A stretch of DNA of 63,827 bases. Origin: Pyrinomonadaceae bacterium (GTDB lineage: Bacteria; Acidobacteriota; Blastocatellia; Pyrinomonadales; Pyrinomonadaceae). The translations under genes were made by a program, and so were the position numbers. This document shows, piece after piece, positions 5,638 to 60,312 of the stretch (positions are counted from its first letter, which is position 1; each line of letters begins with the position of its first letter). The notes under the pieces are model-generated. The model worked only from the letters and a program-made list of their open reading frames with translations, was not told the origin of the DNA and ran no database searches. The stretch lies in the NCBI GenBank assembly GCA_049799955.1, contig JBARIW010000075.1:1-63827 (forward strand), read 5' to 3'.

Positions 5638-5641
5638 AAAT

Positions 5642-7124: not shown

Positions 7125-7125
7125 A

Positions 7126-7223
7126 ATTCAAGATTCAAGATTCAAGATTCAAGATTCAAGATTTAAGATTTAAGATTTTGTCTTTCAATTTTGAATTTTG
7201 AATCTTGAATCTTGAATCTTGAA
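7126..7223. repeat. CAAGATT-family palindromic heptamer-repeat element (copy 1)
   Basis: (ATTCAAG)x5-ATTTAAGATTTAAGATTTT-gtctttc-AATTTTGAATTTTGAATCTTGAATCTTGAATCTTGAA; near-perfect ~45-bp arms. It sits between the stop of 7231..8280 and the start codon of phoX (7122-7124). Confidence 0.9.
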
Positions 7224-7230
7224 CTAGCTA

Positions 7231-18652: not shown

Positions 18653-20908
18653 TCAAAAATTCAAAACTAATTCGCCGTCTTTCTCTTCGACCGAAACGCT
18701 TCCGCCATCGGTTAGTTTGCCGAAAAGAATTTCCTGCGCGAGCGGCTGTTTGATTTTTTCGTGAATCAGACGCGCCATCGGACGCGCGCCGTATTTGCCG
18801 TCGAAACCGTGTTCGGCGAGCCAGACTTTCGCGCTTTCGGTGAGTTGTACGAGAACGCGTTTTTCGGCAAGCTGACCGTTTAGCTCGTTGATAAATTTAT
18901 CGACGATGAGCGTGATATGTTCGAGTTCGAGCGCTTTGAACGGCACCCACGCGTCGAGACGATTACGGAATTCGGGCGTGAATGTGCGTTCTATCGCTCC
19001 TTTTGCCTGACCTTTCGAGCTTGCCTGATTGCGAAAACCGACGCCGCCCGAAGATAATTCTCTCGCGCCCGCGTTGGTCGTCATAATCAAAATCACGTTG
19101 CGGAAATCGGCTTTTTTGCCGTTGTTGTCGGTCAGAGTCGCCGAATCCATCACCTGCAAGAGCAAATTAAAAAGGTTCGGATGCGCTTTTTCGATTTCGT
19201 CAAGAACGAGAACGGCGTGCGGCGTGCGCATAATCGCTTCGGTAAGAAGCCCGCCCTGGTCGTAGCCGACGTATCCCGGCGGCGCGCCGATGAGCCGCGA
19301 AACGGTGTGCGGCTCGGCATATTCGCTCATGTCGTAGCGCATAAATTCGATGCCGAGCTGTTCCGCTAATTGCTTTGAAAGCTCGGTTTTGCCAACGCCG
19401 GTCGGACCGCTGAAAAGAAACGAGCCGACGGGTTTTGTTTCGTGTCCGAGACCGGCGCGTGAAATCTGAATCGCGTTGACAATCTGGTCAATCGCTTCGT
19501 CCTGACCGAAAATTACGCCTTTCAAATCCGGCTTGAGCGTCTTCAAACGGTCTTTTTCGTCGGCGACAACCGTTTTCGGCGGAATTTTCGCCATCCGCGC
19601 AATCGCGTTTTCGACCATCTGAACGGAAATAAATTTCGGGCGCGTTTCGACGGGCAAAAGCTTCGTCGCCGCGCCGACCTCATCGATTACGTCAATCGCC
19701 TTGTCGGGCAAATGACGGTCGTTGATGTATTTTCCGGCGAGTTCGGCGGCGACTTTTAAAGCTTCGTCCGAATATTTTACGCCGTGATGTTCTTCGTAAA
19801 ATTTCTTTAAGCCTTTTAAGATTTCGTAAGTTTCGTCAATCGTCGGCTCGCCGATTTCGATTTTCTGAAAGCGTCTCGCAAGTGCGCGGTCGCGTTCAAA
19901 AGCGGCTTTGTATTCGCTGTATGTGGTCGAGCCGATACAGCGCAGAGCGCCGTCGGCAAGCGCGGGTTTTAAGATATTCGAAGCGTCCATCGCGCCGCCC
20001 GAAACCGCGCCCGCGCCGACGATTGTATGAATTTCGTCGATAAAAAGAATCGAATTTTCGTGTTTTTGCAGCTCGCTGATAATCGCTTTGAAACGCTGTT
20101 CGAAATCGCCGCGATAACGCGTTCCGGCAAGAACCGCGCCCATATCGAGCGCGAAAACTTTCGCGTCTTTTAAGACTTCCGGCACATTTCCCTCGCTGAT
20201 TTTCAGCGCCAAACCTTCCGCCAGCGCGGTTTTGCCGACGCCCGGCTCGCCGACGTAAAGCGGATTGTTTTTCTTTCGGCGGCAGAGAACCTGAATAGTT
20301 CTTTCGATTTCCTCCATCCGCCCGATTATCGGGTCAATTTCGCCTTTCGCCGCTTTTGCGACCAATTCGACGGTGAAAGATTCGAGCGGTTTTCTCTTTT
20401 TCGGTCGCGCGCGTTCTTCGGCAAATTCCTCGTCTTCCATCCCTTCGCCAATCGGGTCGAAATCCAGACCGTTATCGATTTTCGAGATGCCGTGCGCGAT
20501 ATAATTCATAATATCGAGCCGTGTTATGCTCTGCTGTTTGAGCAGATAAACAGCATAGCTTTGCTCTGCCTGATAAATTGCGGCGAGAATATTTCCGCCG
20601 TCAACGGCTCGCTGACCGCTGCCTTCCGCCTGCAAAACCGCGTATTGAATCGTCGCCTGAAACGTCGAAGTAAGCTCCGGCATCATCTTTGAGCCGTCGG
20701 GCATTTTCTCCAGAACGTCGGTGAAGTATTCCTCTAAAGATTTGGCTATTTCCTCAATTTTCGCGCCGCAGTTAAACAAAATATCGCGCGCGGCGGTGTC
20801 TTCGAGCAAAGCGAAAAGCAGATGCTCAAGCGTTACATATTCGTGTTTGTGCTTGACGGCTTCATCGACCGCAAAGCTTAACGTTTCTTCTAATTCTCTT
20901 GTCAACAT
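18653..20908 (-). CDS. clpA: ATP-dependent Clp protease ATP-binding subunit ClpA
   Basis: 751 aa, N-domain 'MLTRELEETLSFAVDEAVKHKHEYVTLEHLLFALLED', two AAA+ modules. Confidence 0.95.
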   Translation of the reverse strand: MLTRELEETLSFAVDEAVKHKHEYVTLEHLLFALLEDTAARDILFNCGAKIEEIAKSLEEYFTDVLEKMPDGSKMMPELTSTFQATIQYAVLQAEGSGQRAVDGGNILAAIYQAEQSYAVYLLKQQSITRLDIMNYIAHGISKIDNGLDFDPIGEGMEDEEFAEERARPKKRKPLESFTVELVAKAAKGEIDPIIGRMEEIERTIQVLCRRKKNNPLYVGEPGVGKTALAEGLALKISEGNVPEVLKDAKVFALDMGAVLAGTRYRGDFEQRFKAIISELQKHENSILFIDEIHTIVGAGAVSGGAMDASNILKPALADGALRCIGSTTYSEYKAAFERDRALARRFQKIEIGEPTIDETYEILKGLKKFYEEHHGVKYSDEALKVAAELAGKYINDRHLPDKAIDVIDEVGAATKLLPVETRPKFISVQMVENAIARMAKIPPKTVVADEKDRLKTLKPDLKGVIFGQDEAIDQIVNAIQISRAGLGHETKPVGSFLFSGPTGVGKTELSKQLAEQLGIEFMRYDMSEYAEPHTVSRLIGAPPGYVGYDQGGLLTEAIMRTPHAVLVLDEIEKAHPNLFNLLLQVMDSATLTDNNGKKADFRNVILIMTTNAGARELSSGGVGFRNQASSKGQAKGAIERTFTPEFRNRLDAWVPFKALELEHITLIVDKFINELNGQLAEKRVLVQLTESAKVWLAEHGFDGKYGARPMARLIHEKIKQPLAQEILFGKLTDGGSVSVEEKDGELVLNF

Positions 20909-20914
20909 ATGCTA

Positions 20915-21184
20915 CTAATTTTTTGCTGCTTCTTGATTAGCTCTTTCCTCTAACCATAAATTAACTAAAGTTTCCGTTGATACGCCTTTCTTTTCGGCAA
21001 TCGTGTGAAGCTTAGATGAAAGCGAAGTCTCAACCGCGTAATAAAAAACGTCGGATTCTAAATCAATTTCAAATTTCGCTTCCTCGGTTTTATCCCAAAC
21101 TTCGCCCAAATCGTGCGAATCCCAATACTCGCCAATTTCCTGATAAGATTTCGCTTCTGAAATTGAACTTTTATTTTCTGCCAT
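20915..21184 (-). CDS. brnA: BrnA-like antitoxin (RHH C-terminus)
   Basis: 89 aa; '…YQEIGEYWDSHDLGEVWDKTEEAKFEIDL…TLVNLWLEE' is the typical partner of BrnT. Overlaps brnT by 14 bp. Confidence 0.7.
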   Translation of the reverse strand: MAENKSSISEAKSYQEIGEYWDSHDLGEVWDKTEEAKFEIDLESDVFYYAVETSLSSKLHTIAEKKGVSTETLVNLWLEERANQEAAKN

Positions 21185-21455
21185 ACTGTTTTCTTTCCCT
21201 TTCGGTCATATCTCTTGCCGATAAAATCAAAGCGCGTCTGTCATTTTTATAGACGAAAAAACAAATCAAATAACGTCCCGAATCGGTTTGACCAAATGCC
21301 GCATATACATTTTCACCTTTTCGATGCCCTTTTTCAACAAAACGAATACGTGGATTATTGAGAAAAAGCTCGCGCACTTCTTCCGTTTCAACGGAATGTT
21401 TCCAAATCAATTTCTGAACGATTTCTTCGAGCCAAACGAATCCGGTAATTTTCAT
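21171..21455 (-). CDS. brnT: BrnT (DUF497) ribonuclease toxin
   Basis: 94 aa; MKITGFVWLEEIVQKLIWKHSVETEEVRELF … LILSARDMTERERKQY matches the BrnT pattern (W…KHG..F.E…F … IISARKAT..ER..Y). Confidence 0.8.
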   Translation of the reverse strand: MKITGFVWLEEIVQKLIWKHSVETEEVRELFLNNPRIRFVEKGHRKGENVYAAFGQTDSGRYLICFFVYKNDRRALILSARDMTERERKQYGRK

Positions 21456-21456
21456 T

Positions 21457-21789
21457 TTACTCTTCCTCGACCGTGCAGAGAAGCGGGTATTCGTGCGCCT
21501 TTGATAAATTCATCGCTTTTTCGGCTTTCATCGTGGCGACTTCGAACGAATAAACGCCCGCGACGCCAATGCCTTCGTTATGAACCTGGAACATAATCGT
21601 AAAAGCTTCGATGTCGGAGCGCATAAAGACGGTTTTGAGTATAAAAACGACAAAATCCATCGTCGTAAAATCATCGTTGTGAAGGATGACTTTATACATT
21701 TTCGGCTTTTCGAGCTTTGTCTCGCTCTCGGTCAGAACGTCGCTGTCTTGTTCAATATCGGGAAAATCCGGCATATTATCATTTATCAT
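21457..21789 (-). CDS. clpS: ATP-dependent Clp protease adaptor ClpS
   Basis: MYKVILHNDDFTTMDFVVFIL…HEYPLLCTVEEE is canonical ClpS. Confidence 0.9.
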   Translation of the reverse strand: MINDNMPDFPDIEQDSDVLTESETKLEKPKMYKVILHNDDFTTMDFVVFILKTVFMRSDIEAFTIMFQVHNEGIGVAGVYSFEVATMKAEKAMNLSKAHEYPLLCTVEEE

Positions 21790-21850
21790 TTATCATTGAA
21801 CATCTACCAAATGATTTAATAATAAATGATAAATGTTCAATGATAAATGT
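21777..21850. repeat. palindromic heptamer-repeat hairpin (ATCATTT x3 … AAATGAT) overlapping the clpS start codon
   Basis: tcatttatcattgaacat … atgttcaatgataaatg is a 17-bp perfect inverted repeat. The 5' arm encodes the clpS N-terminus MINDN. Confidence 0.85.
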
Positions 21851-22969
21851 TTAGATTTTATTAACTTCAAAATACGCTTTAATGGCGTTGTATTTGCTCG
21901 AATTGTCTAAGATGTCAAAAATCTTTTCATAGTTTTCCAAGCCTTCGACCTTGTGCGTCAGCATACGGGAAAGCCAGCCCGCGTACATCGCTTCGCAGAG
22001 CGCCAAATCTTTTACGCCAAGCTCGAAATGCTCGCGGTTGGCGTTGACCGTTCCGACCATTGCGCGATTTCCCAGAACGAACATCTGATTGATTTTGTCC
22101 GAAGGAACGGCGTCGGTTTTGCGCTCGCCGCCGGTTACGGAAGCGAGAATCAAAATGCCGTTTTCGTTCAAACTCTGCATCGCGTCGAAGATAATCGGCG
22201 AATAGCCCGTGCATTCAAAAACGAGGTCGTATTCGCCGTATTTTTTCGTACTTTCGGCAATCGATACATCGTCGGTCGAATCGTAAGTCGCGCCGATTGC
22301 TTCGATTAAATCCGCGTTCAGATAGCCTTCGCGCTTTTGCTTGCCGAAGCCGTGAACTTCGTAGCCGCGCAGGCGCAAAGCCATTATGGTCAGCAGCCCG
22401 ACGTTTCCCGTTCCGAGAACGGCGGCGGTTTTCGGATGCCAGATTTTCAAGCGTTCCTGGATGTCGCTCGCCTGTTTCAAGCCTTTTTCGATAATCGAAA
22501 GCGGTTCGAGAAGAACGGCGATTTCTTTAATCGCGGGCGGAATTTTTATTAAAAAATCTGCGCTTTCAGCGTAAAATTCCGACATATAGCCGTGCAGACG
22601 CGAGATTCCGCGCTCGTAATATTTGTCGTCGGTCGTAAAATCCTGCTCGCCGATTTTATCGTAAATGCTCGAACCGCGCGGACGCCTGACGGTGGCGACG
22701 ACGAAATCGCCTTTTTGTAATTCCTTTACATTTTCGCCCGTTTCGACGACGCGCCCGAAGTTTTCGTGTCCGAGAACGAGAAAATCGAAGCCTTTCGGCG
22801 CGACGCCGTATTCGCCGTTGTTTATTTCTCTGTCCGTTCCGCACGCTCCGACGCGCAAAACTTCGACCAGAACGCCGCGCCCGTCTTTAATTTCATCAAT
22901 TTCCGGTTTCTTCATTTGAACCAGCTTCACTGATTTCGCCTGTTTCGGCGTAACTGCTACTGCTTTCAT
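21851..22969 (-). CDS. zinc-dependent alcohol dehydrogenase family (glucose 1-dehydrogenase / threonine-DH-like)
   Basis: 372 aa; 'VGACGTDREI' catalytic-zinc motif, Rossmann fold. Confidence 0.8.
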   Translation of the reverse strand: MKAVAVTPKQAKSVKLVQMKKPEIDEIKDGRGVLVEVLRVGACGTDREINNGEYGVAPKGFDFLVLGHENFGRVVETGENVKELQKGDFVVATVRRPRGSSIYDKIGEQDFTTDDKYYERGISRLHGYMSEFYAESADFLIKIPPAIKEIAVLLEPLSIIEKGLKQASDIQERLKIWHPKTAAVLGTGNVGLLTIMALRLRGYEVHGFGKQKREGYLNADLIEAIGATYDSTDDVSIAESTKKYGEYDLVFECTGYSPIIFDAMQSLNENGILILASVTGGERKTDAVPSDKINQMFVLGNRAMVGTVNANREHFELGVKDLALCEAMYAGWLSRMLTHKVEGLENYEKIFDILDNSSKYNAIKAYFEVNKI

Positions 22970-23021
22970 AAATTATCCTCTTTAACTTTAGAGTTTAGCG
23001 TTTGTGCGGAAAAAGATTAAA

Positions 23022-23092
23022 TGCAGAGACGCTGGAGACGCGGAGAAAAGAAAATTTATTTCTTAAAATCTCTGCGTCTCCAGCGTCTTTGC
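23022..23092. repeat. GCAGAGACGC-family palindromic element (intergenic copy), terminator position
   Basis: tgcagagacgctggagacgcggaga-loop-tctctgcgtctccagcgtctttgcg; 22/25 complementary arms, and the loop is itself palindromic (aagaaa…tttctt). Confidence 0.85.
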
Positions 23093-23121
23093 GTTAAAAA
23101 AATACTTAATTTGCAATGACA

Positions 23122-26100
23122 TTAAACTTTTACTGCGACCGTCGCTTTGCGTTCCAGCTTGCCCCAACCGACGAGCGCGCCGCGAATTGCGGTCAGAACC
23201 GATTTGACCATCACCCAATACATTACCTGACGATAACCGAAACGCTGCAAGAGAAGCCAGCCGAGCAATCGTTTCTGCTCGCGTTTCTCCATCATAAACG
23301 CGGCGAACGCGCCGAACCAGTCAACCGCCAGAAAAAGCGCGTAATAAAACATCACCGCGCCCAGATTTGTCGGCGTATGCGCGTATTCTTTTTGATGTTC
23401 GAGATAGCCGATAAGCACGGAAACAAGCGTCCAGACGAACATCAAATCCATAAGCGGCGAAATGAGCGGAAACAAAACCTGAAAAATCCAGACGTTCGGC
23501 ATCGCGACGAAACCGAGCGCGCCGTATTTCGGATTGAGAAACGCCCGTTTGTGTTTCCACATACACTGTAAAGTTCCGAACGACCAGCGAAATCTCTGTT
23601 TTGCAAGCCCGCGAAGCATGTCGGGCGCTTCGGTCAGACCGACTGCGTTTTCTTCATAACCGATGTAATAGCCGAGCTTGCGAACCTGAATCGTTAAATC
23701 CTGGTCTTCGGCGAGCGTGTCGGACGAAAATCCGCCGATTTTTTCCAGAACCTCGCGCCGCCACGCGCCGACCGAACCGGGAACAACCGTGATGCAGTTC
23801 AGGGACGCAAAAGCGCGGCGGTCGAAATTCTGCGAAGTAACGTATTCGAGCGCCTGCCATTTGGTAACGATATTTATACGGTTTCCGACCTTCGCATTTC
23901 CGGCTACCGCGCCGATTGTTTTATCGGCAAAACGGCGCGCGAGCGCGGAAATCGTCTGCGATTCAAAAAGCGTGTCGGCATCGAGCGCGACGATAATCTC
24001 GCCTTTCGCCAGCCGCCAGCCGAAATTCAATGCCTCGGCTTTCCCGCCGTTTTCTTTACGAAAAATCGAAACTTTTTTGTTCGCGCCGAAATTTTCACGG
24101 GCAAGTTCAAACGTGTTATCGCCCGAGCCGTCGTCAACGACGATAACCTCAAAATTCGGGTAATCGGATTCAAGCAGGCTTTCAATAGTTCGGACGATTA
24201 CTTTTCCTTCGTTAAAAGCCGGAACGACGACCGAAACGCGCGGCTCGTATTTTTCGCCGAAATGGTCGTGCTCGCGCCTTCTTGAGCGCAGATATTGAGC
24301 GAAAGCAAGAATGCCGATGAGCGCCATCCGGCTCAAACCCAAAACGATTCCGATGATAAACGTCCACTGCATCAGCCAGCCGCCGATTGATATTCCGTAG
24401 AAAACAAACGAATCGGTTTCGGCGTAAAACGTCCGATTTTCGGGAACTTGCGGCATCGCCTGCTCGCGCGAAATATCCGCTAAATCGGAAACGGTCGTGA
24501 ACTCGAAACCACGCGCTTTTAGTTCGTGAATAATTCGCGGCAAAGCTTCGACGGTCGCCGAACGGTCGCCGCCGCCATCGTGCAGCAAAACTATCTCGCC
24601 GCGCGCTTCGAGCGTTGTAACTGCCGCCGCCGCAAGGGTTTCGTTGACCAAATCATCGGCATTGCGCGGCGTTCCATCGTCGTTTTTCAATTTCCAGTCG
24701 TCCGGGTCGATATGCAAGCCGACGGAAATATAACCTAAATTCTGCGCCTGAATGGTTGGCTCGACCTCGTCCGGCGTGCGCGGCTCGGCATCGCCGAAAT
24801 AAGGCGCGCGGAAAAGACGCGTCGAATGTCCGGTCAGCGATTCGATAAGGCGCTGGGTCGCGTTTAGTTCGATGTCTGTAACCTGACGCGGAACTTCGCC
24901 CAGATTCGGATGCGTGAACGAATGATTGCCGATTTCGTGACCTTCGGCGACGATTCGTTTGATTAAATCGGGATTTGCCTGACCGTTTTCGCCGACGACG
25001 AAAAACGCGGCTTTGACGTTTTCCTGTTTTAGAATATCGAGAATTTTCGGCGTCCAGACCGGGTCGGGTCCGTCATCGAAAGTCAGAACGATTTTCCCGA
25101 TTTTATCGCCCGTTCGCTGGATGACGTAAGACGACGGAACCTGCCGGTAAATTTCATTTGTAACCGCGCCGCCGGCGTCCGATTTCAAATCGCGCACGCC
25201 GTCCTGCGGCTCGGCTTTGACCTGAAGAATCTCGCCCGTTCCTTCAAAATCGACATCGTAGCCGTATTTGATAATTTTTAAATCATCCGACAAAAAACTC
25301 TGATTGTCCGCGCCGAATATTTTCCACAAACTCGGGTCTTCGCTGCCCAGACGCCACAGCGCAAAACCTGCGACTTTATAAGGTTCTGCGGATTGAATTT
25401 CGTTGTAAGCCGTAACCGCGTCGAGAAACCAGACGTTGTGCGTTTTGCCATCGTCCTCGACGTAGCTGAAATACGGATTTTTCGATGCGCTGTCAAACTT
25501 TATTTCGGTCGGGCTGTCCAGAGATTCTTTCGCGGCGAGTACGGACTGCTGAAACGAAATGTCTTCGGCTTCCTTCGCGCCGTTTGTCCAGTTGTAGCCG
25601 TAATTGCCGAAACAGACGACGGTTTTGGCTGGCGCAAGCTCCGTCATACGCTTTTTCAAAATCGTTTCAAACCATTCCTGACCGGCAATCGAACCGGCTT
25701 CGCCCGTCGACCAGTGCTGGTCATAAGCCATCAGCATCAGATAATCGATTACATTTGCGTAAGCGCGATAATTCCAGTCGGGATTGTCGAAGGGAACTGC
25801 CTGCGCGAGCGTCAAATTTCGTTTTTGAAACTCCGCGTGCAGCTCTTCCATAAATGTGAAAAGACTCGTCTGCGCGCTCGCCGGAACTTCCTCGATGTCA
25901 ATCGTGATGCCGCCGAATTTGTATTTCGCAATCGTTTCGAGCAATGATTTTATAAGTTTTTGGCGCGCGTCCTCCGTTGAAACGGCTTTTGCCAGAATTG
26001 CCGAATTCCATTGCTCGTTTTTATAGTTTTGCAAAAGCGGCAGAACCGGCATATCAGGCTTTTCCTGCTGAATCAAATCGAGCGCCTGTTGGTCAATGTC

Positions 26101-26694
26101 CAGAACGAGCGGGTTTTCATCGTCGCCCGAAAGCCGAATCCATTCGGGAACGAGCCAATCAAGCCTGTTGATATTCTGCTTGAGCGAAGCATAGCTGGAA
26201 TCGTCCCAGTTGACGTAAAAACCGATTGCCAGGGGCTTTCCGTTTGTATTTAAAGGCGGCGTCGGCGCGGGCTTGGTCGCCAGAAACATTTCTTTGTCGG
26301 ATAATTTTTGCCGCTTGATTTCGTCTCGTTTGCTCTTTTCAAGCTTTACCTGTTTGAGCAGCGAGTCATGTTTGCCGAGTTTAGGTATTTCGGGAAGCTG
26401 AATCTGCGTGTCTTCCTGCTGCGGCAAAAGCACCGACGGTTTTAAGCGAATTTGCGGAAGAAACGGATTTATCAGGACGCTGACGACGAAAAAGACGAAA
26501 AAAGCCGTTATTACGATTGCCAGCACAAGTCCGAGATAATTAAAAACACGCCAGCGTCTGCCTTTTTTGTCAAAAAAGACAGGTTTTTTGTTGTCCAAAA
26601 GCGAATCGTTTATCATATTTTTTAAAACCAGATAATAGATGCATAAACGAGATTTGGAGGCTAATGTTTTGAGTTTTTTATTCCTCGGAAGCAA
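23122..26694 (-). CDS. tri-domain membrane polysaccharide synthase: GH18-like hydrolase domain + NodB-type (CE4) polysaccharide deacetylase + family-2 glycosyltransferase (PgaC/IcaA/NodC-like)
   Basis: 1190 aa. N-terminal TM then a GH18-like domain ([11 protein letters not shown]…[10 protein letters not shown]); CE4 NodB motifs (TFDDGP…, …[11 protein letters not shown]); GT2 (VVVPAFNEG…VVDDGSGD… with processive 'QRFRWSFG' motif) plus C-terminal TM helices. The start overlaps the upstream GH63-like gene by 17 bp. Confidence 0.8.
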
Positions 26695-29476
26695 TTTCTG
26701 AAGTTTCGATATGCCTGCCGCTTTTTTCGTCTTCGTATTCGCCGATTTGCTGTAATAATTTGCCGATTAAACCTGTCCAGCCCGTCTGATGGCTCGCGCC
26801 GAGACCTGAGCCGCGGTCGCCGTGAAAATATTCGTAAAACAAAATATAGTCGCGCCAATGTTCATCCGTTTGAAATTTTTGGGTGCTGCCGTGAACGGCG
26901 CGGATTCCTTCCTCATCTTTTAAGAAAATGTTTGAAAGACGTTTCGATAATTCCTGCGAAACTTCCCAGAGCGTCAGCATTTTTTCAGAACCTGTCGGAA
27001 ATTCGATTTTAAAGTCTTCGCCGTAAAAGAAATCGAATTTCTGTAAACTCTCGATTAAAAGATAGTTGACCGGAAACCAGATTGGACCGCGCCAGTTCGA
27101 ATTTCCGCCGAACATTCCGCTTCGGGACTCGGCAGGCTCGTATTCGACCGTGTGTTTTGTTCCATCCATTTCTAAAATGTAAGGATTTGTTTTGTGAAAG
27201 CGCGAAAGCGCGCGAATGCCGTAATCGGACAAAAACTCGGTTTCCGAGAGCATATAGCGCAAAATGCTTTGCAGTTTTTCGCGCGTAACGATTGAGAGAA
27301 TCCGCCTTTTTTCTCTGCCTTCTTCCTGCATACAGGCGATGTCGTCGGTCAAATCGGGGCGGTTTTTGAGAAACCATTCGGTTCGTTTTCTGAATTCGGG
27401 CAGATTTTCAAGCCATTCTTCTTCGATGGTTTCGACCGCGAAAAGCGGAATCAGCCCGACCATCGAGCGCAGCTTTATAGGAATATTTCGCTGAGCCGGA
27501 AGGTGCAGAACGTCGTAATAAAAACCGTCGCGCTCGTTCCAAAGCTCGGTATTTTCGTTGCCGAGATTGTTCATCGCGTCGGAAATATAAACGAAATGCT
27601 CGAAAAATTTGCTGGCGACATCTTCATAAACCTTGTCTTCTTTGGCGAGTTCGAGCGCGATTGCGAGCATATTCAGGCAATACATCGCCATCCAGCTCGT
27701 TCCGTCGGATTGTTCCAAAAATCCGCCGCCCGGCAGCTTCGTGCTGCGGTCGAAAACTCCGATATTGTCGAGTCCGAGAAATCCGCCTTCAAAAACGTTA
27801 TTGCCTTCCTCGTCCTTTCGATTCACCCACCACGTAAAATTGAGAAGCAGTTTGTGAAAAACTTTCTCCAGAAAATCACGGTCTGTCGCGCCGCGCCTTT
27901 TTGCTTCGATTTGATAAACTCTGAGCGCCGCCCACGCGTGAACCGGCGGATTGACATCGCCGAAAGCCCATTCATACGCCGGAATCTGACCGTTCGGATG
28001 CATATACCATTCGCGCAGAAGCAGAATAAGCTGCTTTTTCGCAAAATCCGAATCGACCAGCGCGAGCGGAATCGTGTGAAAAGCCAAATCCCAAGCCGCG
28101 TACCACGGATATTCCCATTTGTCGGGCATCGAGACGATATCATCGTTGTAAAGATGTTTCCAATCCTTGTTTCGCCCGCTGAATCTCTCTTTCGGCGGCG
28201 GCGAAAACGCGCTGTCGCCTTCGAGCCAGTCTTTAACGATGTATTGATAAAACTGCTTCGACCAGAGCATTCCGGCTAAGCTTTGCCGCATCACGTTTTT
28301 TTCGTCGTCGGACAAATTATTTGGAATAATTTCAGTATAAAAATCATTGGCTTCGGCAATTCGCCGCTGGAAAATCGCTTCGCAGTCGGCGATGAATTCA
28401 TCGTGGGAAATTTCGCCGCAGAGACGCAGAGACGCGGAGTTTTTTTCAATTATTTCATCTTGATTCGTTTTTGAATTTTCTCTCAGCGTCTCTGCGTCTC
28501 TGCGGTTCAAATCCTTTTTGCACAAGCGCAAGTAAATCGTTTCGCTCGAATCAGGCGCAAGTTCAAAAGCATAATGCGCGGCGGCTTTCGTTCCCGTTTG
28601 CTTTGGATTGACGGCGTTTCTGTTGCCGCCGACGACATAATCGTTGATGCCGTCTTTGGCAAAGGGCGATTTATTTTCGCCGCCGTAAAGTTTTTGAAAG
28701 TTCGTCTCGTTTTCGCAGAAAAGCAAGGTTGAAGAGCCTTCCGCGCAAAGAATATATTCGCCGATTGGAGATTCGAGATGCACTAGCGAGAGATTTTCCG
28801 CGCTCGTTTCCGCTTTTTTCAAAATCGGTTTTTTTGCGCTTTCCGTCCAAGACCAGTTATTGCGAAACCAGACGGTCGGCAAAATATGAAGCGGCGCGGG
28901 TTCTTCCGAGCGATTAAAAGCGGTGATTTTAATGCAAATATCTTCCGCGTCCGCCTTTGCGTATTCTACAAAGACATCGAAATATTTGTTTTCGTCAAAC
29001 GCGCCCGTGTCCATCAATTCAAATTCCGGCTGCGATTTGTCGCGCCGGAGATTTTCGTCTTTGAGAATTTTGTAGGGAAATTCGCTCTGCGGGTATTTGT
29101 AGAGATATTTCATGTAGGAATGCGTCGGCGTGTTGTCGAGATAAAAATAATATTCTTTTACGTCTTCGCCGTGATTTCCCTGATTACCGCCGACGCCGTA
29201 AAGTCTTTCCTTTAGAACCCGGTCTTTGCCGTTCCATAAAGATAAAGCGAAGCAGATGTGCTGTTTGCGGTCGCAAATGCCGGCGATTCCGTCTTCGTTC
29301 CAGCGATAAGTTTTCGAAACTGCCTGCTCGAACGGGAAATAATCCCACGCCGCGCCGTCAGCCGAATAATCTTCGCGCACCGTTCCCCAGGCTCGTTCCG
29401 AAACGTAACAGCCCCATTGCTTCCAGTCTTTTTCTTTTTTTCGTGCTTCTTCGAGCCGTTTTTCTTCCGCCTGCAA
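26678..29476 (-). CDS. GH63-like (MGH1/processing-alpha-glucosidase-like) glycoside hydrolase
   Basis: 932 aa; '…[17 protein letters not shown]…' N-domain and an (alpha/alpha)6-barrel-like C-domain ('[14 protein letters not shown]…'). Family assignment is from memory of the fold pattern. Confidence 0.65.
28416..28506. repeat. GCAGAGACGC-family palindromic element inserted in-frame inside the GH63-like CDS
   Basis: ccgcagagacgcagagacgcggag-43 nt-ctcagcgtctctgcgtctctgcgg; encodes …[30 protein letters not shown]… on the minus strand. Confidence 0.8.
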
Positions 29477-29692
29477 CGCTTTTTCCTCAAAAAAATTAGT
29501 GTATTAAAAGAATGTCATAAAGAATTTTTTACGTCTAGCCTTATTTAGATAAATAAAATTTATGGACGAACGGGAAAAAATCTGTTAAATTTCAATATTG
29601 GATATACCAATTTCTGAGACTACCCCTAAAAAAAAAGATTTTCTTGCTGAAATAAAGATTGGATTAGTAGTTTTATCTCCTTAACTAGAGCA

Positions 29693-32600
29693 ATGAAAAA
29701 AAGTTCCCTTTCGACCAAAGAATATTTCAAGTCGGAAAACGCCTCCCATTTTGGCGCGAAGGCTGACTCGCGCTTTCGTAAAGTGAGAGCCATCTCCGAC
29801 GAGAAATTAGCAGACAATATAACCGAAGTCCGGCTCAAACTGGACGAAGGACTTTCCGGCGCGGCTGAAAAAATCATCCGCGAGACGCTGGAAAATTTTT
29901 CGCTTGACGCCGAGCAGCAGGCGACGTTACAGCATCTTTTGTCTTACACGCTGGAAACGCAGGGACGCTACCCGGAAGCGCTCGAAGTTATCGCGGCTTT
30001 CGAAGACGAAGCGGCTTTAACCAATCTCAAAGACGAAACGCGAATTTACGTCCTTGTTCAGCTCGCCATCTCGCACAACAATCAGACGGATTTTCCGAAA
30101 GCCGTCGCGCTTCTGAAAAAAAGCCGCGAAGAAGCCGAAGCAAAAAAACTGACATCTCTTTTGGGAAGCATTTTCGTCGCGCTGGCGCGTGTTTACCGCA
30201 AGCTTAACGAATTTCCGATTGCCCGCGACCACGCCGAAAAAGCTTTGAATTATTTCCGCGAGCAAGGCGACTGGCGCGGAATGGCGGAAAGCTATTTTCT
30301 GATTGCCACCACGCTTCATCAGGAAGGCGACAGCGCAAAATCTCTGGAATATTTTCAGCAGGCAATCAAAATTATCGGCTCGCGCAGCGCTTTGTTTCTG
30401 CTCGGCAAGATTTATTCCGACCTCTCGGGCGCATACTGGTTTTTGCGCCGCCCGCAGGAAGGCATCGCGTGTCTCGAAAAATCGATTAAATTCTTTGACC
30501 GTACCGAACATAAAATTCACTCAATCGCCGCGTATAACAATCTCGGAATCAACCTGATGCTGCTCGGCGAATGGACAAAAGCCGAAAGCGTCATCAAACG
30601 CGCGCTGGAATTGGCTTTTGAAACGAATCACGTTCACATCGCGGGAATTCTGGATTCACTGGGCGAGCTAAAGCTTCTTAGAGGCGATTTGGATGAAGCG
30701 CAAAAACTTCTGGAACGCGGCGTTACCATCGCGCAGGAGCGCAAAAAGGAATGGTACGAAATTCAGGCTTCGCGCAATCTGGCGAGAACGCTTCTGGCGC
30801 AGGGAAATCTGACCGAAGCAACGGAGCGGGCGCAGGAAACAATCGAGATTTGCCGCCGAATCGGCGAGCGTCAGATTTCCAATATGGCGAGCCTCGTGCT
30901 GGCGGAAGCTTACCTGCAAAAAGGCAAATTTATCGATTGTGAGAGCGAGCTCGAAGCGATTGAAAAAAACGAGCCGAGCTCCGACTTTTTCGTGCTCGGC
31001 AACGTTCAGCGTATTCGCGGGCTTCTTTCGCTCGAATACAGGGACAAGGAGCTTGCTGCTCATCATTTCAGCCGCGCTTTGACGATTTTCGAGACGGCGG
31101 AAGATTTATATCACACGGCTCTGGCGCATTTTCTGGTTGGAAAAACCGTTTTCGCGGGCGAACCGGAACGCGCGCTGAAGCATTTGACTTCGGCAAGCGA
31201 GATTTTCCGCAAGCTCGACGTTAAGCCGCTTCTAAAGGAAACGCAGGAAATTCTCGAAGAACTCAAAACGGTCGAAACGGGAAACAAAACTACTTCGTCA
31301 GCCGGTTCGCAGCTTTTGATGCTTCGTCTGGCGGAAGCGACCGCCTCGCGCGAGCTTCTTTTCCGCGAGCTTGTCGCCATTTTGCAGCAGGAAAGCAAGG
31401 CGAAGAAAATCATCGTCGCCGAGATGAACGACCAGAAAAGATTTTACCCGTTTATTACGCACGGCTATGTTCCCGCCGAGAGTATGGAGCTTGTCTCCAA
31501 ATTTCACGAAGCGCAGATAAAAAATGAAGTAGAAATTTTCGCCAAAACAAAAAATTTACAGGTTTACCAGCTTCGCTCGCCGAGCGCTTCGCCCGCGATT
31601 TTGATGATAAGCCCGCAGTCAGGCGCGGTTTTAAACGACGAAAGCTCGATTCAGCCGCTTCTGCGCGTCGTCGAGCTTGGAATGGACGTTTGCGCTTTGC
31701 GCGATAAAGACAAAACCAACATCGGCGAGCAGGCGACAAGTTCGTTTACTTCCAATAGTTTAATGCCCGGTTTTATTCATTCTTCGCCCGCGATGACATC
31801 TCTGGTCGAAGAAGTTTATAAAATCCGCTCGTCCGACGTAACGGTTTTGGTTACGGGCGAATCGGGAACGGGCAAAGAGCTTGTCTCGCGCGCGATTCAC
31901 ACGATTTCTTCCCGTAAGGATAAAATTTTCGTGCCGTTTAACTGCACCGCCGTTCCCAAAGAATTAGCCGAGGGTCATCTTTTCGGTTATCGCAAAGGCT
32001 CGTTTACCGGCGCGGTAACGGATTCGCAGGGAATGATTCGCGCGGCTGATGGCGGAACTTTGTTTTTAGACGAAGTCGGCGATTTGCCGCTCGACGTTCA
32101 GCCAAAACTATTAAGATTTCTTCAGGAAGGCGAAATTCAGCCGCTCGGCGAAAAACGCCCGATAAAAGTTGACGTTCGCATCATCGCCGCGACCAATATG
32201 CCGCTCGAAGCGAAAGTTGCCGACGGCAGCTTCCGCGAAGATTTATATTATCGCCTGAACGTCATCCGCCTGCGCGTTCCGCCTCTGCGCGAACGTCGCT
32301 CGGAAATTCCGCCGATAATCAATTATTACGTCAATCATTACGCGGCAAAATTCGGTCGGCGCAACATAACGATTACGCCGCAGACGATAGATTTGCTGAT
32401 GGTCTGCGATTGGGACGGCAATGTGCGCCAGCTTTGCAACGAGATTCAGCGCGTCGTCGCCCGCGCCGAAGACGGCGAAACGATAACGCCCGACCATCTC
32501 TCGTCCGAACTGAAACGCAGCGCGACGCCGATTTCGTCGCTCGCAACCAACAGCGGTAACGTGCGTCAGATTGCTTCTTACGACAAATCATACAGCAGCT

Positions 32601-32782
32601 TTAATATCGGCTCGGAAAGCGGAACGCTCGAAGAAGCTGTTTCGGAATTGGAAACGCAGATGATAAACGATTCATTAGGAAGACATAACTGGAACATCTC
32701 AAAAGTCGCCCGTGAATTAGGCTTAACCAGACGCGGTCTGTATATGAAAATCGCCCGCTACGGCATCGAAAAATCGGCGTGA
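29693..32782 (+). CDS. sigma-54-dependent transcriptional activator with a ~650-aa N-terminal TPR-repeat sensor region
   Basis: AAA+ sigma-54 interaction domain (GESGTGKELVSRAIH; 'GSFTGA' variant of GAFTGA; ESELFGH-like) and a C-terminal Fis-type HTH (…NISKVARELGLTRRGLYMKIARYGI). Confidence 0.85.
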   Translation: MKKSSLSTKEYFKSENASHFGAKADSRFRKVRAISDEKLADNITEVRLKLDEGLSGAAEKIIRETLENFSLDAEQQATLQHLLSYTLETQGRYPEALEVIAAFEDEAALTNLKDETRIYVLVQLAISHNNQTDFPKAVALLKKSREEAEAKKLTSLLGSIFVALARVYRKLNEFPIARDHAEKALNYFREQGDWRGMAESYFLIATTLHQEGDSAKSLEYFQQAIKIIGSRSALFLLGKIYSDLSGAYWFLRRPQEGIACLEKSIKFFDRTEHKIHSIAAYNNLGINLMLLGEWTKAESVIKRALELAFETNHVHIAGILDSLGELKLLRGDLDEAQKLLERGVTIAQERKKEWYEIQASRNLARTLLAQGNLTEATERAQETIEICRRIGERQISNMASLVLAEAYLQKGKFIDCESELEAIEKNEPSSDFFVLGNVQRIRGLLSLEYRDKELAAHHFSRALTIFETAEDLYHTALAHFLVGKTVFAGEPERALKHLTSASEIFRKLDVKPLLKETQEILEELKTVETGNKTTSSAGSQLLMLRLAEATASRELLFRELVAILQQESKAKKIIVAEMNDQKRFYPFITHGYVPAESMELVSKFHEAQIKNEVEIFAKTKNLQVYQLRSPSASPAILMISPQSGAVLNDESSIQPLLRVVELGMDVCALRDKDKTNIGEQATSSFTSNSLMPGFIHSSPAMTSLVEEVYKIRSSDVTVLVTGESGTGKELVSRAIHTISSRKDKIFVPFNCTAVPKELAEGHLFGYRKGSFTGAVTDSQGMIRAADGGTLFLDEVGDLPLDVQPKLLRFLQEGEIQPLGEKRPIKVDVRIIAATNMPLEAKVADGSFREDLYYRLNVIRLRVPPLRERRSEIPPIINYYVNHYAAKFGRRNITITPQTIDLLMVCDWDGNVRQLCNEIQRVVARAEDGETITPDHLSSELKRSATPISSLATNSGNVRQIASYDKSYSSFNIGSESGTLEEAVSELETQMINDSLGRHNWNISKVARELGLTRRGLYMKIARYGIEKSA

Positions 32783-32870
32783 AGATTTAAGATTCAAGAT
32801 TTAAGATTCAAGATTTAAGATTTTGTCTTTCAATTTTGAATCTTAAATCTTGAATCTTAAATTTCGAATC
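32783..32870. repeat. CAAGATT-family palindromic heptamer-repeat element (copy 2), convergent-gene terminator position
   Basis: agatttaagattcaagatttaagattcaagatttaagatTTTGTCTTTCAATTTTGAAtcttaaatcttgaatcttaaatttcgaatc. It shares the centre ttttgtctttcaattttgaa with copy 1 and is translated as the C-terminal tail of 32808..34553. Confidence 0.9.
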
Positions 32871-34553
32871 ACAAAGAAATACGCTCAAGCTCATTAAAAT
32901 AAAGAAAACCATTGCAACTTCCTGGTCGCCGAGATTGTAATGTACAAGACCACTCGTAAAAAATCCGACTAAGCCGCCGAGCGAGCCGAGAACTACACCT
33001 TTTTCAATCAGGGAAGAGGAGAAAAGGAGAGGAGGAGAAGAGGAGATTTCTGACCGATTTGCAATAGCCTTTTCTCCTCGTCTCCTTTTCTCCTCGTCTC
33101 CTTTTCTCAAAATCAGCACTTTCGCATAACGCCACAAAATCCAGAGCCAGAGAAGCAGCGCGGGCAAACCGCGTTCGACCAGTAATTGCAAAGGCGTCGA
33201 ATGAAAATGTCCCTGCGGAAGCCGTCCGCTGTCGTATAAATTCCAGTCCTTCCAGTAGCGCTGAATCGAATCCATTCCGACGCCGAGCGTGAAATTTCGC
33301 GCATCTTGCGTCCAGAGTCGAAAACCGTCGCGCCACATCGTTTGCCGGTAAGCGGTCGAATCGTCCTTCGCGTCGAAAAACCCGACATTCCGGCTCTGCT
33401 GAAGAAAAATCAGCCCGCCGACGGCAACCGGCAAAATTATCGCGGCTAGAGCCAAAAGCAATTTGCGTCTGCCGCTTGCCAGCACGATTGCAACAGCCGA
33501 GATGAGAAATGCTAATTGCGAAGCGCGCGTAACGGTCAAAAGCAGCGCGAGCGACATCAATACTACGCAAATAAAAGTGAGAAGTGAGAAGTGAGAAGTG
33601 AAAAGTGAAGAATTAGATTTCTTTTCTTCCTTTGCGCCTTTGCGCCTTTGCGGGAAAAAACTCGCAATGAACAACCCGAATGTTAAAGATAAAATCAACT
33701 GCAAAACTTCCGCATACGTCGCGTAGTGTCCGAAAAATCCGCTTGAGCGCCAGTTTCTGCTTTTTTTCCAGCTTTGGATGCCGAGCCGTTCGAGCGCGTT
33801 CGCGCCGCTTAATAAATTCTCTCGCTTTATATCGACGGCAAATTCAAAATCCGGTCGATAAAATGTAACTTTCGAACTCTCGTTTTGCTCGATTTGCGCG
33901 ACCAAATCTTCGGGCGAGCTTAGTTTTTTGCCGTTGGCGGCGAGCAATGCGTCGCCTTCAATCAAAACGGCTTTTGCCAGAGGACTGTTTGGCGCGACGC
34001 CGTGAATCTCGACGCCGCGCCCGATTATTCGTTGAACCGGCGTCCAAAGAACGTTGACCATACACGAAAAAATCATCGCCAGCGCCAGAAATCGTACCGC
34101 GCGCTTTGTTCGGAGATTATTTATGACAAAATAAAAAATCAGAAAAAGCGCCGCGCCGCGCAGCTTATTCACGGAAATTTCGGGCGCGTAGGAAAATGCG
34201 GACGAAATGACAGACCAGCCGAAAAACGCCCACAAAGGAATGTCCAGAGCCGTCTTGACGAATTTCGGGCGCGGTTTTATAAAAAGGCGAACTATCCAGA
34301 CAAACATTCCGGTTATCCACGCCGTTTGCGAGGCGGCAATCGAATGCGGCGCGGATAAAATCATCAAAATCAGAAAAGCAAACGCGATTCGCTCACACCA
34401 TCGCGCCGCGTTGTTTTCAGTTTCGATTCCGGCTAATTCATCAAATTTTTTGAGAAAATCGCGCATAGAAAGAGAAAGTTTCCCACAAAGCGCAGAAACA
34501 CGCAAAAACAAAGCGATTTTGACATTTCCGGTTTGGCTAAAGTAGTCTGACAA
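32808..34553 (-). CDS. polytopic membrane protein, O-antigen-ligase (Wzy_C)-like with an embedded PDZ domain
   Basis: 581 aa, more than 10 TM segments. The PDZ-like segment is 'GVEIHGVAPNSPLAKAVLIEGDALLAANGKKLSSPEDLVAQIE'. Contains in-frame repeat insertions at 33003-33105 and 33573-33655. Confidence 0.5.
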   Translation of the reverse strand: MSDYFSQTGNVKIALFLRVSALCGKLSLSMRDFLKKFDELAGIETENNAARWCERIAFAFLILMILSAPHSIAASQTAWITGMFVWIVRLFIKPRPKFVKTALDIPLWAFFGWSVISSAFSYAPEISVNKLRGAALFLIFYFVINNLRTKRAVRFLALAMIFSCMVNVLWTPVQRIIGRGVEIHGVAPNSPLAKAVLIEGDALLAANGKKLSSPEDLVAQIEQNESSKVTFYRPDFEFAVDIKRENLLSGANALERLGIQSWKKSRNWRSSGFFGHYATYAEVLQLILSLTFGLFIASFFPQRRKGAKEEKKSNSSLFTSHFSLLTFICVVLMSLALLLTVTRASQLAFLISAVAIVLASGRRKLLLALAAIILPVAVGGLIFLQQSRNVGFFDAKDDSTAYRQTMWRDGFRLWTQDARNFTLGVGMDSIQRYWKDWNLYDSGRLPQGHFHSTPLQLLVERGLPALLLWLWILWRYAKVLILRKGDEEKRRRGEKAIANRSEISSSPPLLFSSSLIEKGVVLGSLGGLVGFFTSGLVHYNLGDQEVAMVFFILMSLSVFLCDSKFKIQDLRFKIERQNLKS

Positions 34554-36051: not shown

Positions 36052-36061
36052 GAATTAGCCA

Positions 36062-36128
36062 CGAACAAACACGAAAGAACACGAAAAAGAAGTAAATAAT
36101 TTTTCGTGTTCTTTTTGTGTTTGTTCGT
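36062..36128. repeat. long near-perfect hairpin (about 33-bp arms) between convergent genes
   Basis: ttagccacgaacaaacacgaaagaacacgaaaaa-gaagtaaataa-tttttcgtgttctttttgtgtttgttcgtggctaa. Confidence 0.85.
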
Positions 36129-36145
36129 GGCTAATTTCTTAACGC

Positions 36146-40475: not shown

Positions 40476-40579
40476 AATTCAAGATTCAAAAGATTTAAGA
40501 TTCAAGATTCAAGATTCAAGATTGGGAATGCTGTTTTCTAATCTTAAATTTTAAATCTTAAATTTTGAATCTTAATTTT
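40476..40579. repeat. CAAGATT-family palindromic heptamer-repeat element (copy 3)
   Basis: aaattcaagattcaaaagatttaagattcaagattcaagattcaagatt-gggaatgctgttttct-aatcttaaattttaaatcttaaattttgaatcttaatttt. It lies between the truB stop and the start of the alpha/beta hydrolase gene. Confidence 0.9.
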
Positions 40580-60305: not shown

Positions 60306-60312
60306 AATTTTC

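Follow-up and report, generated by a model that had tools for sequence, protein, structure and literature searches.

A palindromic repeat with tandem-octamer arms, found between genes and in frame inside a glycoside hydrolase gene of a Pyrinomonadaceae bacterium

Introduction

How does a long inverted repeat come to lie inside an open reading frame without interrupting it, and is such a repeat a dispersed element, a structure that serves its host, or the product of local rearrangement? The question is raised by a 63,827-nucleotide stretch of DNA from a Pyrinomonadaceae bacterium (Acidobacteriota; GenBank assembly GCA_049799955.1, contig JBARIW010000075.1), here called the window, in which one hairpin-forming sequence lies between two genes and a sibling lies within a gene encoding a GH63-like glycoside hydrolase. 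A preliminary description of this DNA took the pair for a selfish element that creates new peptide segments in host proteins, comparable to the Rickettsia palindromic elements (RPEs) and some cyanobacterial MITEs. In-frame palindromic repeats are best known from Rickettsia, and a 2013 survey adds a few REP-rich species (PMC3733652).

Results

Two hairpins in the window share one arm

Both inverted repeats are present where the preliminary description had placed them, the in-ORF copy to within one base (Table 1). The in-ORF copy has 24-nt arms that are 96% complementary and enclose an AT-rich loop of 42 nt (28440–28481), and the intergenic copy has 30-nt arms that are 87% complementary and enclose a loop of 22 nt (23047–23068). 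The arm common to the two consists of GCRGAGAC octamers, which makes them members of one repeat family, as had been proposed. In the intergenic copy the second unit measures 9 nt (GCTGGAGAC) and has its exact mirror in the opposite arm, a symmetric one-base insertion. With up to one mismatch allowed, 12 instances of the motif GCAGAGACGC are found in the window against a shuffle mean of 3.9, and none of 100 shuffles reached 12.

Table 1. Positions of the two hairpins, the inserted codons and the adjoining genes in the window
Feature	Position	Strand	Remarks
GCRGAGAC-type hairpin inside GH63-like ORF	28416..28505	.	arms 28416–28439 and 28482–28505
Intergenic sibling hairpin	23017..23098	.	arms 23017–23046 and 23069–23098
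Host gene, 932-aa GH63 / MGH1-like glycoside hydrolase, ORF intact	26678..29476	-	PF22422 at 4e-21; PF03200
Codons R325–G354, 30-residue peptide specified by the hairpin	28415..28504	-	translation
GH18 / polysaccharide deacetylase / GT2 fusion, 1190 aa, upstream neighbour of the intergenic copy	23122..26694	-	
Zinc-type alcohol or glucose dehydrogenase-like (ADH-like) gene, downstream neighbour of the intergenic copy	21851..22969	-	

As RNA, the in-ORF copy folds at −49.9 kcal/mol in the sense and −55.2 kcal/mol in the antisense orientation (z about −9) and the intergenic copy at −43.9 and −53.5 kcal/mol (z −8.8 and −11.7), the antisense strand giving the better fold in both; no fold as stable arose in 200 shuffles of either hairpin. 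Against Rfam 15, tRNA alone reached the gathering score in the window, and ranking by E-value gave the two hairpins sub-threshold generic miRNA-precursor matches and no family. The in-ORF insert recurs in independent assemblies from NCBI, JGI, ENA and Logan, which excludes an assembly artefact.

The intergenic copy lies between the stop of the 1190-aa ORF and the start of the ADH-like ORF, 24 nt past the GT2-gene stop, and on the minus strand it is followed by the weakly U-rich sequence AUUUAAUCUUUUU. The syntenic GT2–ADH junction of locus L007 lacks it and has a spacer of 14 nt. Comparison with L007 hints at an AAAGTT(T)AA duplication flanking the insert, which is not convincing. The absence in L007 suggests that this copy was gained later and in one lineage, at a position resembling that of a terminator.

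The in-ORF copy is a true insertion into an interdomain linker

The GH63-like protein has the same sequence as NCBI protein WA584_12930, from a Pyrinomonadaceae MAG, and has thousands of homologues, 902 aa being the commonest length among the closest. The hairpin lies wholly within its ORF and is read through without a stop, so that, as first described, it is translated as about 30 extra residues (R325–G354) with the frame unbroken. An indel of this size had been anticipated on alignment and is indeed found: 86 residues separate the GTKAA and ADEFY motifs here, against 51–53 in orthologues from other phyla. These distant orthologues (the matches listed in a protein search of genome contigs, all of 69% identity or less) are without R325–G354, which makes the segment a true insertion. 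Among close orthologues the linker is 56–64 aa in most, and most show an alignment gap at the insert.

The inserted residues fall in the linker that joins the N-terminal beta domain, a beta-sandwich, to the catalytic domain. In an AlphaFold model of only moderate quality (mean pLDDT 58), residues 323–353 have pLDDT below 50 and lie between a strand (310–320) and a helix (358–383), so that the insert falls in a low-confidence interdomain linker. A search of PDB sequences with the GH63-like protein gave no match.

The GH63 site records maintenance, replacement and decay

About ten Pyrinomonadaceae orthologues, loci L001–L005 among them, carry the hairpin at the same codon site and with related loops. 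The loops of L003 and L005 are 79% identical, and that of L260 resembles the loop of L003. Carriers of the hairpin are scattered over the orthologue tree. A decay series accompanies them: the hairpin of L006 is degenerate, that of L007 and L008 is reduced to its left arm, and L262 has a mini-stem (CCGCCTGC/GCGGGCGG); other orthologues show half-arm remnants or short footprints. At two loci the site has been rebuilt, for in L260 a new (AATCCGC)4 right arm faces the old left arm and in L259 there is a full hairpin built of a related unit. The GH63 copy is not recent; it is ancestral to a whole Pyrinomonadaceae clade and was lost or shortened many times. The series shows one insertion into the linker between beta-sandwich and catalytic domain in an ancestor of that clade, followed by vertical inheritance during which the loop drifted at the neutral rate and the arms were held complementary and near the family consensus. 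In most lineages internal deletions have then cut the copy to a footprint of a few residues, a course that can be followed in three of them.

In comparisons of GH63 orthologues, identity is 84% in the arms but 59% both in the loops and at fourfold-degenerate sites, and 91% of stem cells are paired. Five of the 24 stem pairs have changed on both sides with pairing kept, a number reached in 2 of 500 shuffles. Sense-strand mismatches are balanced between G·U and A·C (5 vs 4), which weakly suggests a DNA rather than an mRNA structure. By these comparisons the insert is not merely tolerated junk, its arms being conserved far beyond the neutral level and its pairing kept by compensatory changes. The upkeep was likely due to arm-to-arm templated repair or to conversion against other copies, and possibly also to selection on structure.

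The family is dispersed among soil bacteria and occurs in frame inside genes

The family arm is about 28 nt long (consensus TTYAMCGC-RGAGACGC-RGAGACGC-RGAG) and comprises two and a half octamers in direct repeat, with a short clamp on the outer side. A full element runs from arm through a non-conserved spacer to the reverse-complement arm, its outer ends TTYAMCGC and GCGKTRAA being paired. Flanks past −10 are not conserved, with T-rich sequence 5' and A-rich sequence 3' of the stem. Single arms fold alone at just −2.9 to −6.9 kcal/mol.

A metagenome scan matched at least 120 contigs, of which 91 hold strong ungapped stems (median stem 25 bp, median loop 21 nt, spacer 4–48 nt), about 21 hold imperfect ones and about 8 resemble chance matches, giving about 110 real hairpins. 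The preliminary description had staked its reading on further copies of the arm motif; many more exist, both intergenic and intragenic. They occupy unrelated loci with unrelated flanks, save for a few orthologous pairs. The identical arm sequence is found across at least three phyla of soil bacteria, including Longimicrobium (Gemmatimonadota) and Chitinophagaceae (Bacteroidota), and contigs with two or three copies have genome-specific terminal variants. In a viral collection, 11 of 13 matches are true hairpins, and two control units of equal base composition gave almost no hairpins there. One control unit, GGACACG, is a poor one: most of its 14 matches share GGACACG repeats around CAACAGAGTAA, and this recurring motif marks them as belonging to a different repeat, not as chance occurrences. 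A BLAST search of a plasmid collection with the consensus element gave no match, to which the low-complexity filter may contribute.

Copies mostly sit directly 3' of genes. A crude ORF caller placed 39 between tandem, 17 between convergent and 4 between divergent gene pairs. At least eight further copies lie in frame inside unrelated conserved genes at unrelated positions, the hosts besides GH63 being genes for a GT2, a GH92, a biotin carboxylase, the CoaBC linker, UvrA (loci L142/L170), NuoL, a U32 peptidase and an FGGY kinase. The GCRGAGAC octamer is free of stop codons in all six frames, so that a copy inside a gene survives provided that it spans a multiple of three nucleotides, with its own loop open and a permissive loop as its site. 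In contigs of high GC content (L099, L100, L110, L123 and others), long ORFs that span a hairpin are Arg/Ala/Pro-rich and have the look of out-of-frame artefacts; they were left out of the intragenic count.

The window holds two copies only, and apart from the GH63 site there is none in about 80 kb of loci from close relatives in the Pyrinomonadaceae, from which activity in this lineage appears to be low or past. Between closely spaced copies (L192, L204, L205) we found no transposase, RAYT or other mobilising gene, only ordinary genes or spurious high-GC ORFs, and among 20 small ORFs of the window there was no Y1 or DDE transposase and no RAYT gene. MITEs have terminal inverted repeats that derive from an IS element and are bordered by a target-site duplication; no parent IS was recognised here, and none of the filled and empty pairs at hand is close enough to define such a duplication or the chemistry of insertion.

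Other hairpins in the window have the same architecture

The GCRGAGAC family is one of a broader class of hairpins whose arms are tandem units, and this class fills gene 3' ends in the same genome. The single 64-kb window contains many different units in this one architecture, and its other hairpins of the class adjoin stop codons, just after them. Those at 7126 and 32782 share the loop AAGATTTTGTCTTTCAATTTTGAATCTT, and the hairpin family at 36053 is found again at a different locus in L008. Orthologous intergenic sites retain a hairpin even where its sequence differs. At the end of the Wzy gene, the units TTCAAGA, TTCCAGA and TTTCAGA at orthologous sites have changed in concert, in all repeats and in both arms. 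Arrays such as (AATCCGC)n were also seen at the same sites in orthologues.

Discussion

Taken together, these data make it fairly probable that both elements belong to a dispersed family of hairpin-forming repeats whose behaviour resembles that of REPINs and RPEs. Copies would have spread within genomes by some mechanism, most being retained immediately downstream of ORFs.

A wider reading, which we offer only tentatively and with its parts taken together, is that bacteria have an undescribed class of foldback repeats, with arms of tandem 7–9 nt units, to which the GCRGAGAC family belongs. Sharing by at least three soil phyla would then imply a conserved recognition or mobilisation machinery other than RAYT; arm-to-arm templated copying would keep copies palindromic over long periods; and copies would preferentially land in, or replace, earlier hairpins. 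If so, linkers such as those of GH63 and Wzy_C would be hot spots in which successive families overwrite segments of 10–30 residues and steadily supply new peptide loops. Literature searches with the arm and peptide strings found nothing, and searches on palindromic elements, tandem-armed hairpins, STRR and small dispersed repeats returned general REP, REPIN, MITE and heptamer papers only.

We consider it unlikely that the hairpin is instead a cis-acting structure of the host, with the intragenic copies regulatory: an RNA 3'-end or terminator-like structure, an RNase III or mRNA-stability site, a translational pause between two domains, or a binding site for a conserved protein, kept by selection. 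The level of arm conservation, well above neutral and with compensatory changes, is as compatible with a host function as with homogenisation, and the conserved arm in three phyla, the preference of the family for gene 3' ends, the other window hairpins just past stop codons, the orthologous intergenic sites that hold a hairpin despite differing sequence, and the absence of any enrichment of canonical intrinsic terminators in the region all suit such a function. It is harder to reconcile with the loss of the hairpin in most orthologues, where the gene is unchanged, or with in-ORF sites at unrelated positions of unrelated genes. Neither the lack of preference for G·U over A·C nor the better antisense fold is expected of an mRNA structure; moreover, no U-tract follows the intragenic copy and no Rfam family matches.

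Quite improbable, in our estimation, is an origin in place, in which hairpins are made and remodelled locally and never transposed, replication slippage expanding the units and intrastrand template switching (quasi-palindrome correction) copying one arm onto the other, while like units at different loci reflect mutational bias or ectopic gene conversion. Such steps would leave unexplained how more than 100 unrelated loci in three phyla come to share identical arms of 24–28 nt and a defined outer clamp, together with the loop common to the distant hairpins at 7126 and 32782, the second locus of the 36053 family in L008 and the near absence of hairpins built of the two control units. They would account for arms that are tandem units, the symmetric one-base indel in both arms of the intergenic copy, the concerted changes at the end of the Wzy gene, the rebuilt hairpins of L260 and L259, and the many units sharing one architecture in the window. 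A chance palindrome or assembly artefact behind the resemblance of the two sites, with the extra 30 residues an ordinary lineage-specific loop, might be argued from the variable linker length in all orthologues and is already refuted by the folding z-scores, the motif enrichment over shuffles, the same hairpin in independent assemblies and the more than 100 further copies.

In-frame behaviour of the Rickettsia kind now extends to abundant, mostly uncultured soil phyla in a repeat of different build, and the GH63 codon site offers an unusually clear series of insertion, long stem maintenance, unit replacement and decay to a footprint. The stop-free octamer gives a simple reason why the GCRGAGAC family, rather than the AT-rich families of the same genome, is found inside genes. 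Recurrent peptide segments such as RRDAETQR...SASLRLCGE in unrelated proteins can mislead homology searches, the placing of domain boundaries and gene calling, and the elements could mark permissive insertion sites in enzymes. Should a conserved partner protein exist, the cross-phylum conservation of the arm would be a handle with which to find it.

Comparison with known systems

The likeness to RPEs and cyanobacterial MITEs proposed in the preliminary description survives as regards in-frame tolerated palindromic insertion (in GH63 and eight further genes) but probably does not extend to family membership, the arms being direct octamer arrays with no CGTC or GTAG tag. The family is dispersed and lies in frame in at least eight more genes, in partial support of the element envisaged there; arms conserved above the neutral level, and no transposase between closely spaced copies or among the small window ORFs, speak against it.

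Foldback (FB) elements of Drosophila also have long inverted arms made of short tandem-repeat arrays around a variable centre, but they are eukaryotic, of kilobase scale and in some cases carry coding sequence, so the likeness is architectural only. Intrinsic (Rho-independent) terminators, in which a U-tract on the transcribed strand comes straight after a short GC-rich stem, were rejected as an identity: a consensus scan flagged neither hairpin, and T-rich 5' with A-rich 3' flanks are the reverse of a terminator. Integron attC sites, which have R'' RYYYAAC and R' GTTRRRY boxes in arrays of co-oriented cassettes, were likewise rejected, as in most copies GGTGAA, CGTCGA or CGTGAG stands at the outer ends in place of GTTRRRY, and the loci are syntenic housekeeping genes. 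The STRR heptamers of heterocystous cyanobacteria and the TAACTGA repeats (PMC4679880) are dispersed arrays of 7-nt units at many loci, comparable to the (AATCCGC)n arrays that recur at the same sites in orthologues here. Those repeats form direct arrays, for the most part intergenic or upstream of genes, whereas the GCRGAGAC element is an inverted pair of short octamer arrays that forms a hairpin.

Closest in layout are the REPINs (Bertels and Rainey, 2011; PMC3116915), with which the family shares two highly conserved inverted ends around a poorly conserved, variable spacer, a hairpin of about 70–110 nt, common compensatory changes, genome-specific variants and a mostly extragenic position near gene 3' ends, seen here in the tandem and convergent bias. 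REPIN ends, however, are short self-palindromic REPs with a GTAG tag and their sequences are lineage-specific, whereas the arms here are direct octamer repeats with one sequence in three phyla, a clear share of the copies is intragenic, and no RAYT gene (an IS200/IS605-like Y1 transposase gene, flanked in REP systems by the repeats) was found nearby. A GTAG REP or REPIN identity was rejected on a consensus without GTAG and on arms that, from their weak single-arm folds, are not self-palindromic.

With RPEs and the GTAG and CGTC REPs (Di Nocera et al., 2013; PMC3733652) the family shares residence in frame inside genes for functional proteins, where about 20–30 residues are added at permissive sites. 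Intragenic REPs described there include one in uvrA, a host in both cases, and the CGTC/RPE group too has no dedicated transposase known. CGTC-type REPs, RPE-4 and RPE-6 included, have stems of 8–9 bp, loops of 4–5 nt and an unpaired terminal CGTC tag (PMC3733652), to which the long stems, loops of 4–48 nt and paired outer ends found here do not conform; this identity was rejected, the family being set apart from RPE by description, and its hosts are soil Acidobacteriota, Gemmatimonadota and Bacteroidota. The GCRGAGAC element is REPIN- and RPE-like, falls in neither family, and has an architecture of its own.

Two related hairpins in the window

The hairpin in the GH63-like gene is ancient and actively maintained, and it belongs to a family of hairpins, present in three phyla, whose arms are built of GCRGAGAC-type octamers. 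Both inverted repeats of the preliminary description were located where it had placed them, and both fold stably (−44 to −55 kcal/mol; z-scores −8.8 to −11.7). Their arms are clearly related, one reading GCAGAGAC-GCAGAGAC-GCGGAG and the other GCAGAGAC-GCTGGAGAC-GCGGAGA; the intergenic copy possesses an additional base in its second unit that is mirrored in the opposite arm. The window contains 12 matches to GCAGAGACGC with at most one mismatch; 100 shuffles averaged 3.9, and none of them reached 12. The intergenic copy lies 24 nt past the stop of the GH18/deacetylase/GT2 gene and upstream of the ADH-like gene.

Hairpins and other features located in the window
Feature	Position	Arms or units	Loop	Context
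Intergenic copy	23017-23098	23017-23046 / 23069-23098; 30 nt, 87% complementary	22 nt	intergenic
GH63 copy	28416-28505	28416-28439 / 28482-28505; 24 nt, 96% complementary	42 nt	in frame
GH63/MGH1-like hydrolase ORF (932 aa)	26678-29476 (−)
Further hairpin	5639-5719	tandem units
Further hairpin	7119-7226	tandem units
Further hairpin	21773-21856	tandem units
Further hairpin	32782-32875	tandem units		overlaps last ~22 codons of Wzy_C ORF
Further hairpin	36053-36136	tandem units
Further hairpin	40481-40575	tandem units
Further hairpin	60234-60313	tandem units
Further hairpin	63340-63425	tandem units
Wzy_C hairpin (−50.5 kcal/mol)	33011-33108	GGAGAMGA units		in frame in Wzy_C ORF
Wzy_C/O-antigen ligase-like ORF	32808-34553 (−)
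Stretch of ~1-1.2 kb without ORF ≥100 aa	17620-18652
Stretch of ~1-1.2 kb without ORF ≥100 aa	54774-56004			contains hairpins 55030-55183 and 55742-55786
tRNA gene	61428-61501

An old insertion in the GH63-like gene

The GH63-like protein (P0001) has the same sequence as WA584_12930, an NCBI protein from a Pyrinomonadaceae (Acidobacteriota) MAG, and the hairpin is translated through as residues R325-G354. From GTKAA to ADEFY this protein measures 86 residues, most of the 120 closest orthologues measure 56-64, and the orthologues listed from outside the Acidobacteriota, including those of Cyanobacteria, Chloroflexota, Nitrospirota and Verrucomicrobiota, mostly 49-62, commonest 51-53 with outliers of 70 and 75. 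The alignment bears out the proposed indel of about 30 aa and shows that the segment is a real insertion. In an AlphaFold model, whose mean pLDDT is only 58, residues 323-353 have pLDDT <50; the N-terminal domain's final beta strand (310-320) precedes them and the catalytic domain's initial helix (358-383) follows, so the insert is predicted to sit in an interdomain linker.

A similar peptide occupies the site in about 10 of the 120 closest orthologues, each with a matching hairpin in its DNA. The loops of several of these hairpins are related (79% identical between orthologue contigs L003 and L005, with that of L260 similar), which points to a single ancestral event and not to repeated insertions, and the scattering of carriers across the orthologue tree implies many losses. 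Several stages of decay were found: the hairpin of L006 is degenerate, L007 and L008 have only a left-arm remnant (HQRDTE and HHRDTE, respectively), and L262 retains a mini-stem, CCGCCTGC...GCGGGCGG. The insertion is old; the shared site, related loops and decay intermediates contradict a recent hit.

Maintenance of the arms

Across seven orthologous GH63 copies, 91% of stem cells are paired, and 5 of 24 stem pairs are altered on both sides yet still paired, which only 2 of 500 shuffles matched. The covariation score of 0.171 lies above the shuffle mean of 0.111, and only 1 of 500 shuffles attained it. Among six orthologues, pairwise identity is 0.84 in the arms and 0.59 in the loop, compared with 0.59 at fourfold-degenerate sites in the remainder of the gene and 0.78 across the whole protein. 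The loop is thus effectively neutral. The arms, in contrast, are under nucleotide-level constraint or homogenisation, although the peptide they specify is dispensable. The palindrome is not merely tolerated by its host gene: its arms exceed neutral identity and keep their pairing. Sense-strand mismatches in the stems comprise 5 G.U and 4 A.C, and the antisense strand of each window copy folds better than its sense strand; together these results argue weakly against a constraint at the mRNA level.

A dispersed octamer family

Scanning metagenomes with the pattern GAGACGC-N1-2-GAGACGC-N22-52-GCGTCTC yielded at least 120 matching contigs. Among the matches listed, contig GC runs from 0.36 to 0.73, and 91 have strong ungapped stems (median stem 25 bp, median loop 21 nt), roughly another 21 are imperfect and about 8 are probable chance matches. 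Flanking DNA is unrelated between loci, barring a few orthologous pairs. The arms share the consensus TTYAMCGC-RGAGACGC-RGAGACGC-RGAG, whereas neither the loop nor the sequence beyond the arms is conserved, and terminal variants are genome-specific in contigs with two or three copies. Taxonomy was assigned for two contigs of extreme GC content: L186 (GC 0.72) belongs to Longimicrobium, Gemmatimonadota (ArgG 92% identical to a named protein), and L204 (GC 0.43) to Chitinophagaceae, Bacteroidota (Pcm ~80% identical to named proteins). With Acidobacteriota, the family spans three phyla. In a viral collection, 11 of 13 pattern matches were true hairpins, and two control units of equal base composition gave almost none.

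The control search also found a tandem-armed hairpin of another unit (GGACGAGC) in two contigs of the viral collection, at 3851-3897 of L239 and 9376-9422 of L245, so this architecture is not restricted to the window's units. Contig L151 carries copies at 10931-10997 and 12815-12888, ~1.9 kb apart, whose near-identical flanks (GCGGATAGAGGCGGACTGAGGGTTGTCACGC...) mark them as parts of a larger duplicated unit, not independent insertions.

A crude ORF caller placed the listed metagenome copies between tandem (39), convergent (17) or divergent (4) gene pairs, inside ORFs (33, many of them edge artefacts) or at contig edges or unknown positions (27). For eight copies, Pfam domains on either side of the hairpin or across it confirmed an in-frame position (GT2, GH92, biotin carboxylase, CoaBC linker, UvrA, NuoL, U32 peptidase and FGGY kinase), several of them common to orthologous contigs. 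All six frames of GCRGAGAC are free of stop codons, as are those of the other units that occur within ORFs, so the family is able to reside in genes; AT-rich units, found only between genes, carry stops on one strand, and a hairpin built of them would always bring in a stop.

Other tandem-unit hairpins

The window holds about 11 long hairpins with arms of tandem 7-9 nt units, the intergenic ones each immediately past a stop codon. Eight further hairpins (see table) each lie directly past a stop codon, between tandem or convergent genes, with units GTGAATA, TTCAAGA, ATCATTT, AAGATTY, CACGAAMA, AATTGAT and AACAGGGAT. Those at 7126 and 32782 have an identical loop, so the further hairpins are also multi-copy families. 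The CACGAAMA family occurs at different loci in two species (window 36053-36136; L008 ~4420-4545, in the ADH-ClpS spacer). Just past the L008 hairpin is a GAGACGC-type half-arm remnant (CTCTGCTTTCTCCGCGCCTCTGTGGTAAA).

Hairpin units differ between species at orthologous sites: the GH63 linker, the Wzy_C loop, the ADH-to-ClpS spacer and the Wzy 3' end. The Wzy_C hairpin encodes KGDEEKRRRGEKAIANRSEISSSPPLLFSSS; its place is taken in L007 by a hairpin built of another unit and in L003 by an (AATCCGC)n array. Among GH63 orthologues, L259 (3001-5793) has a perfect GCGGAAT/ATTCCGC hairpin at the same codon site (−60.8 kcal/mol), L260 (6-2717) retains a GAGAC-type left arm and loop with a right arm of (AATCCGC)4, and L261 (3001-5763) has (AGTCCGC)3(AATCCGC)2 adjoining a surviving right arm. 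These differences suggest nested replacement, or overwriting of one arm from the other.

Intrinsic terminators are not enriched in window 20500-34000 (27 consensus terminators versus 28 expected from shuffles) and no gene end there has one; long hairpins occupy those positions instead. At the gathering threshold Rfam found nothing in the two stretches without ORFs, and the tRNA gene is its sole above-threshold match in the window.

Comparison with known elements

Rfam has no family for either window hairpin, and a literature search on arm and peptide strings found no match, nor did BLAST of the consensus element against a plasmid collection, to which the low-complexity filter may have contributed. 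No REP-associated Y1 transposase (RAYT) was found between closely spaced copies (L192, L204, L205) or among 20 small window ORFs. Membership in the Rickettsia palindromic element (RPE) or REP families was rejected: the octamer family lacks a GTAG or CGTC tag, its arms, unlike those of REPs, are not self-palindromic, and its stem and loop sizes do not fit. The RPE-like reading of the preliminary description was nevertheless broadly right, although the GH63 copy is ancient and not a recently tolerated insertion. In architecture and distribution the family resembles REPINs, the REP doublet hairpins (PMC3116915), and, like RPEs and intragenic REPs, which occur in frame within genes including uvrA (PMC3733652), it lies in frame inside genes, with UvrA among its hosts.
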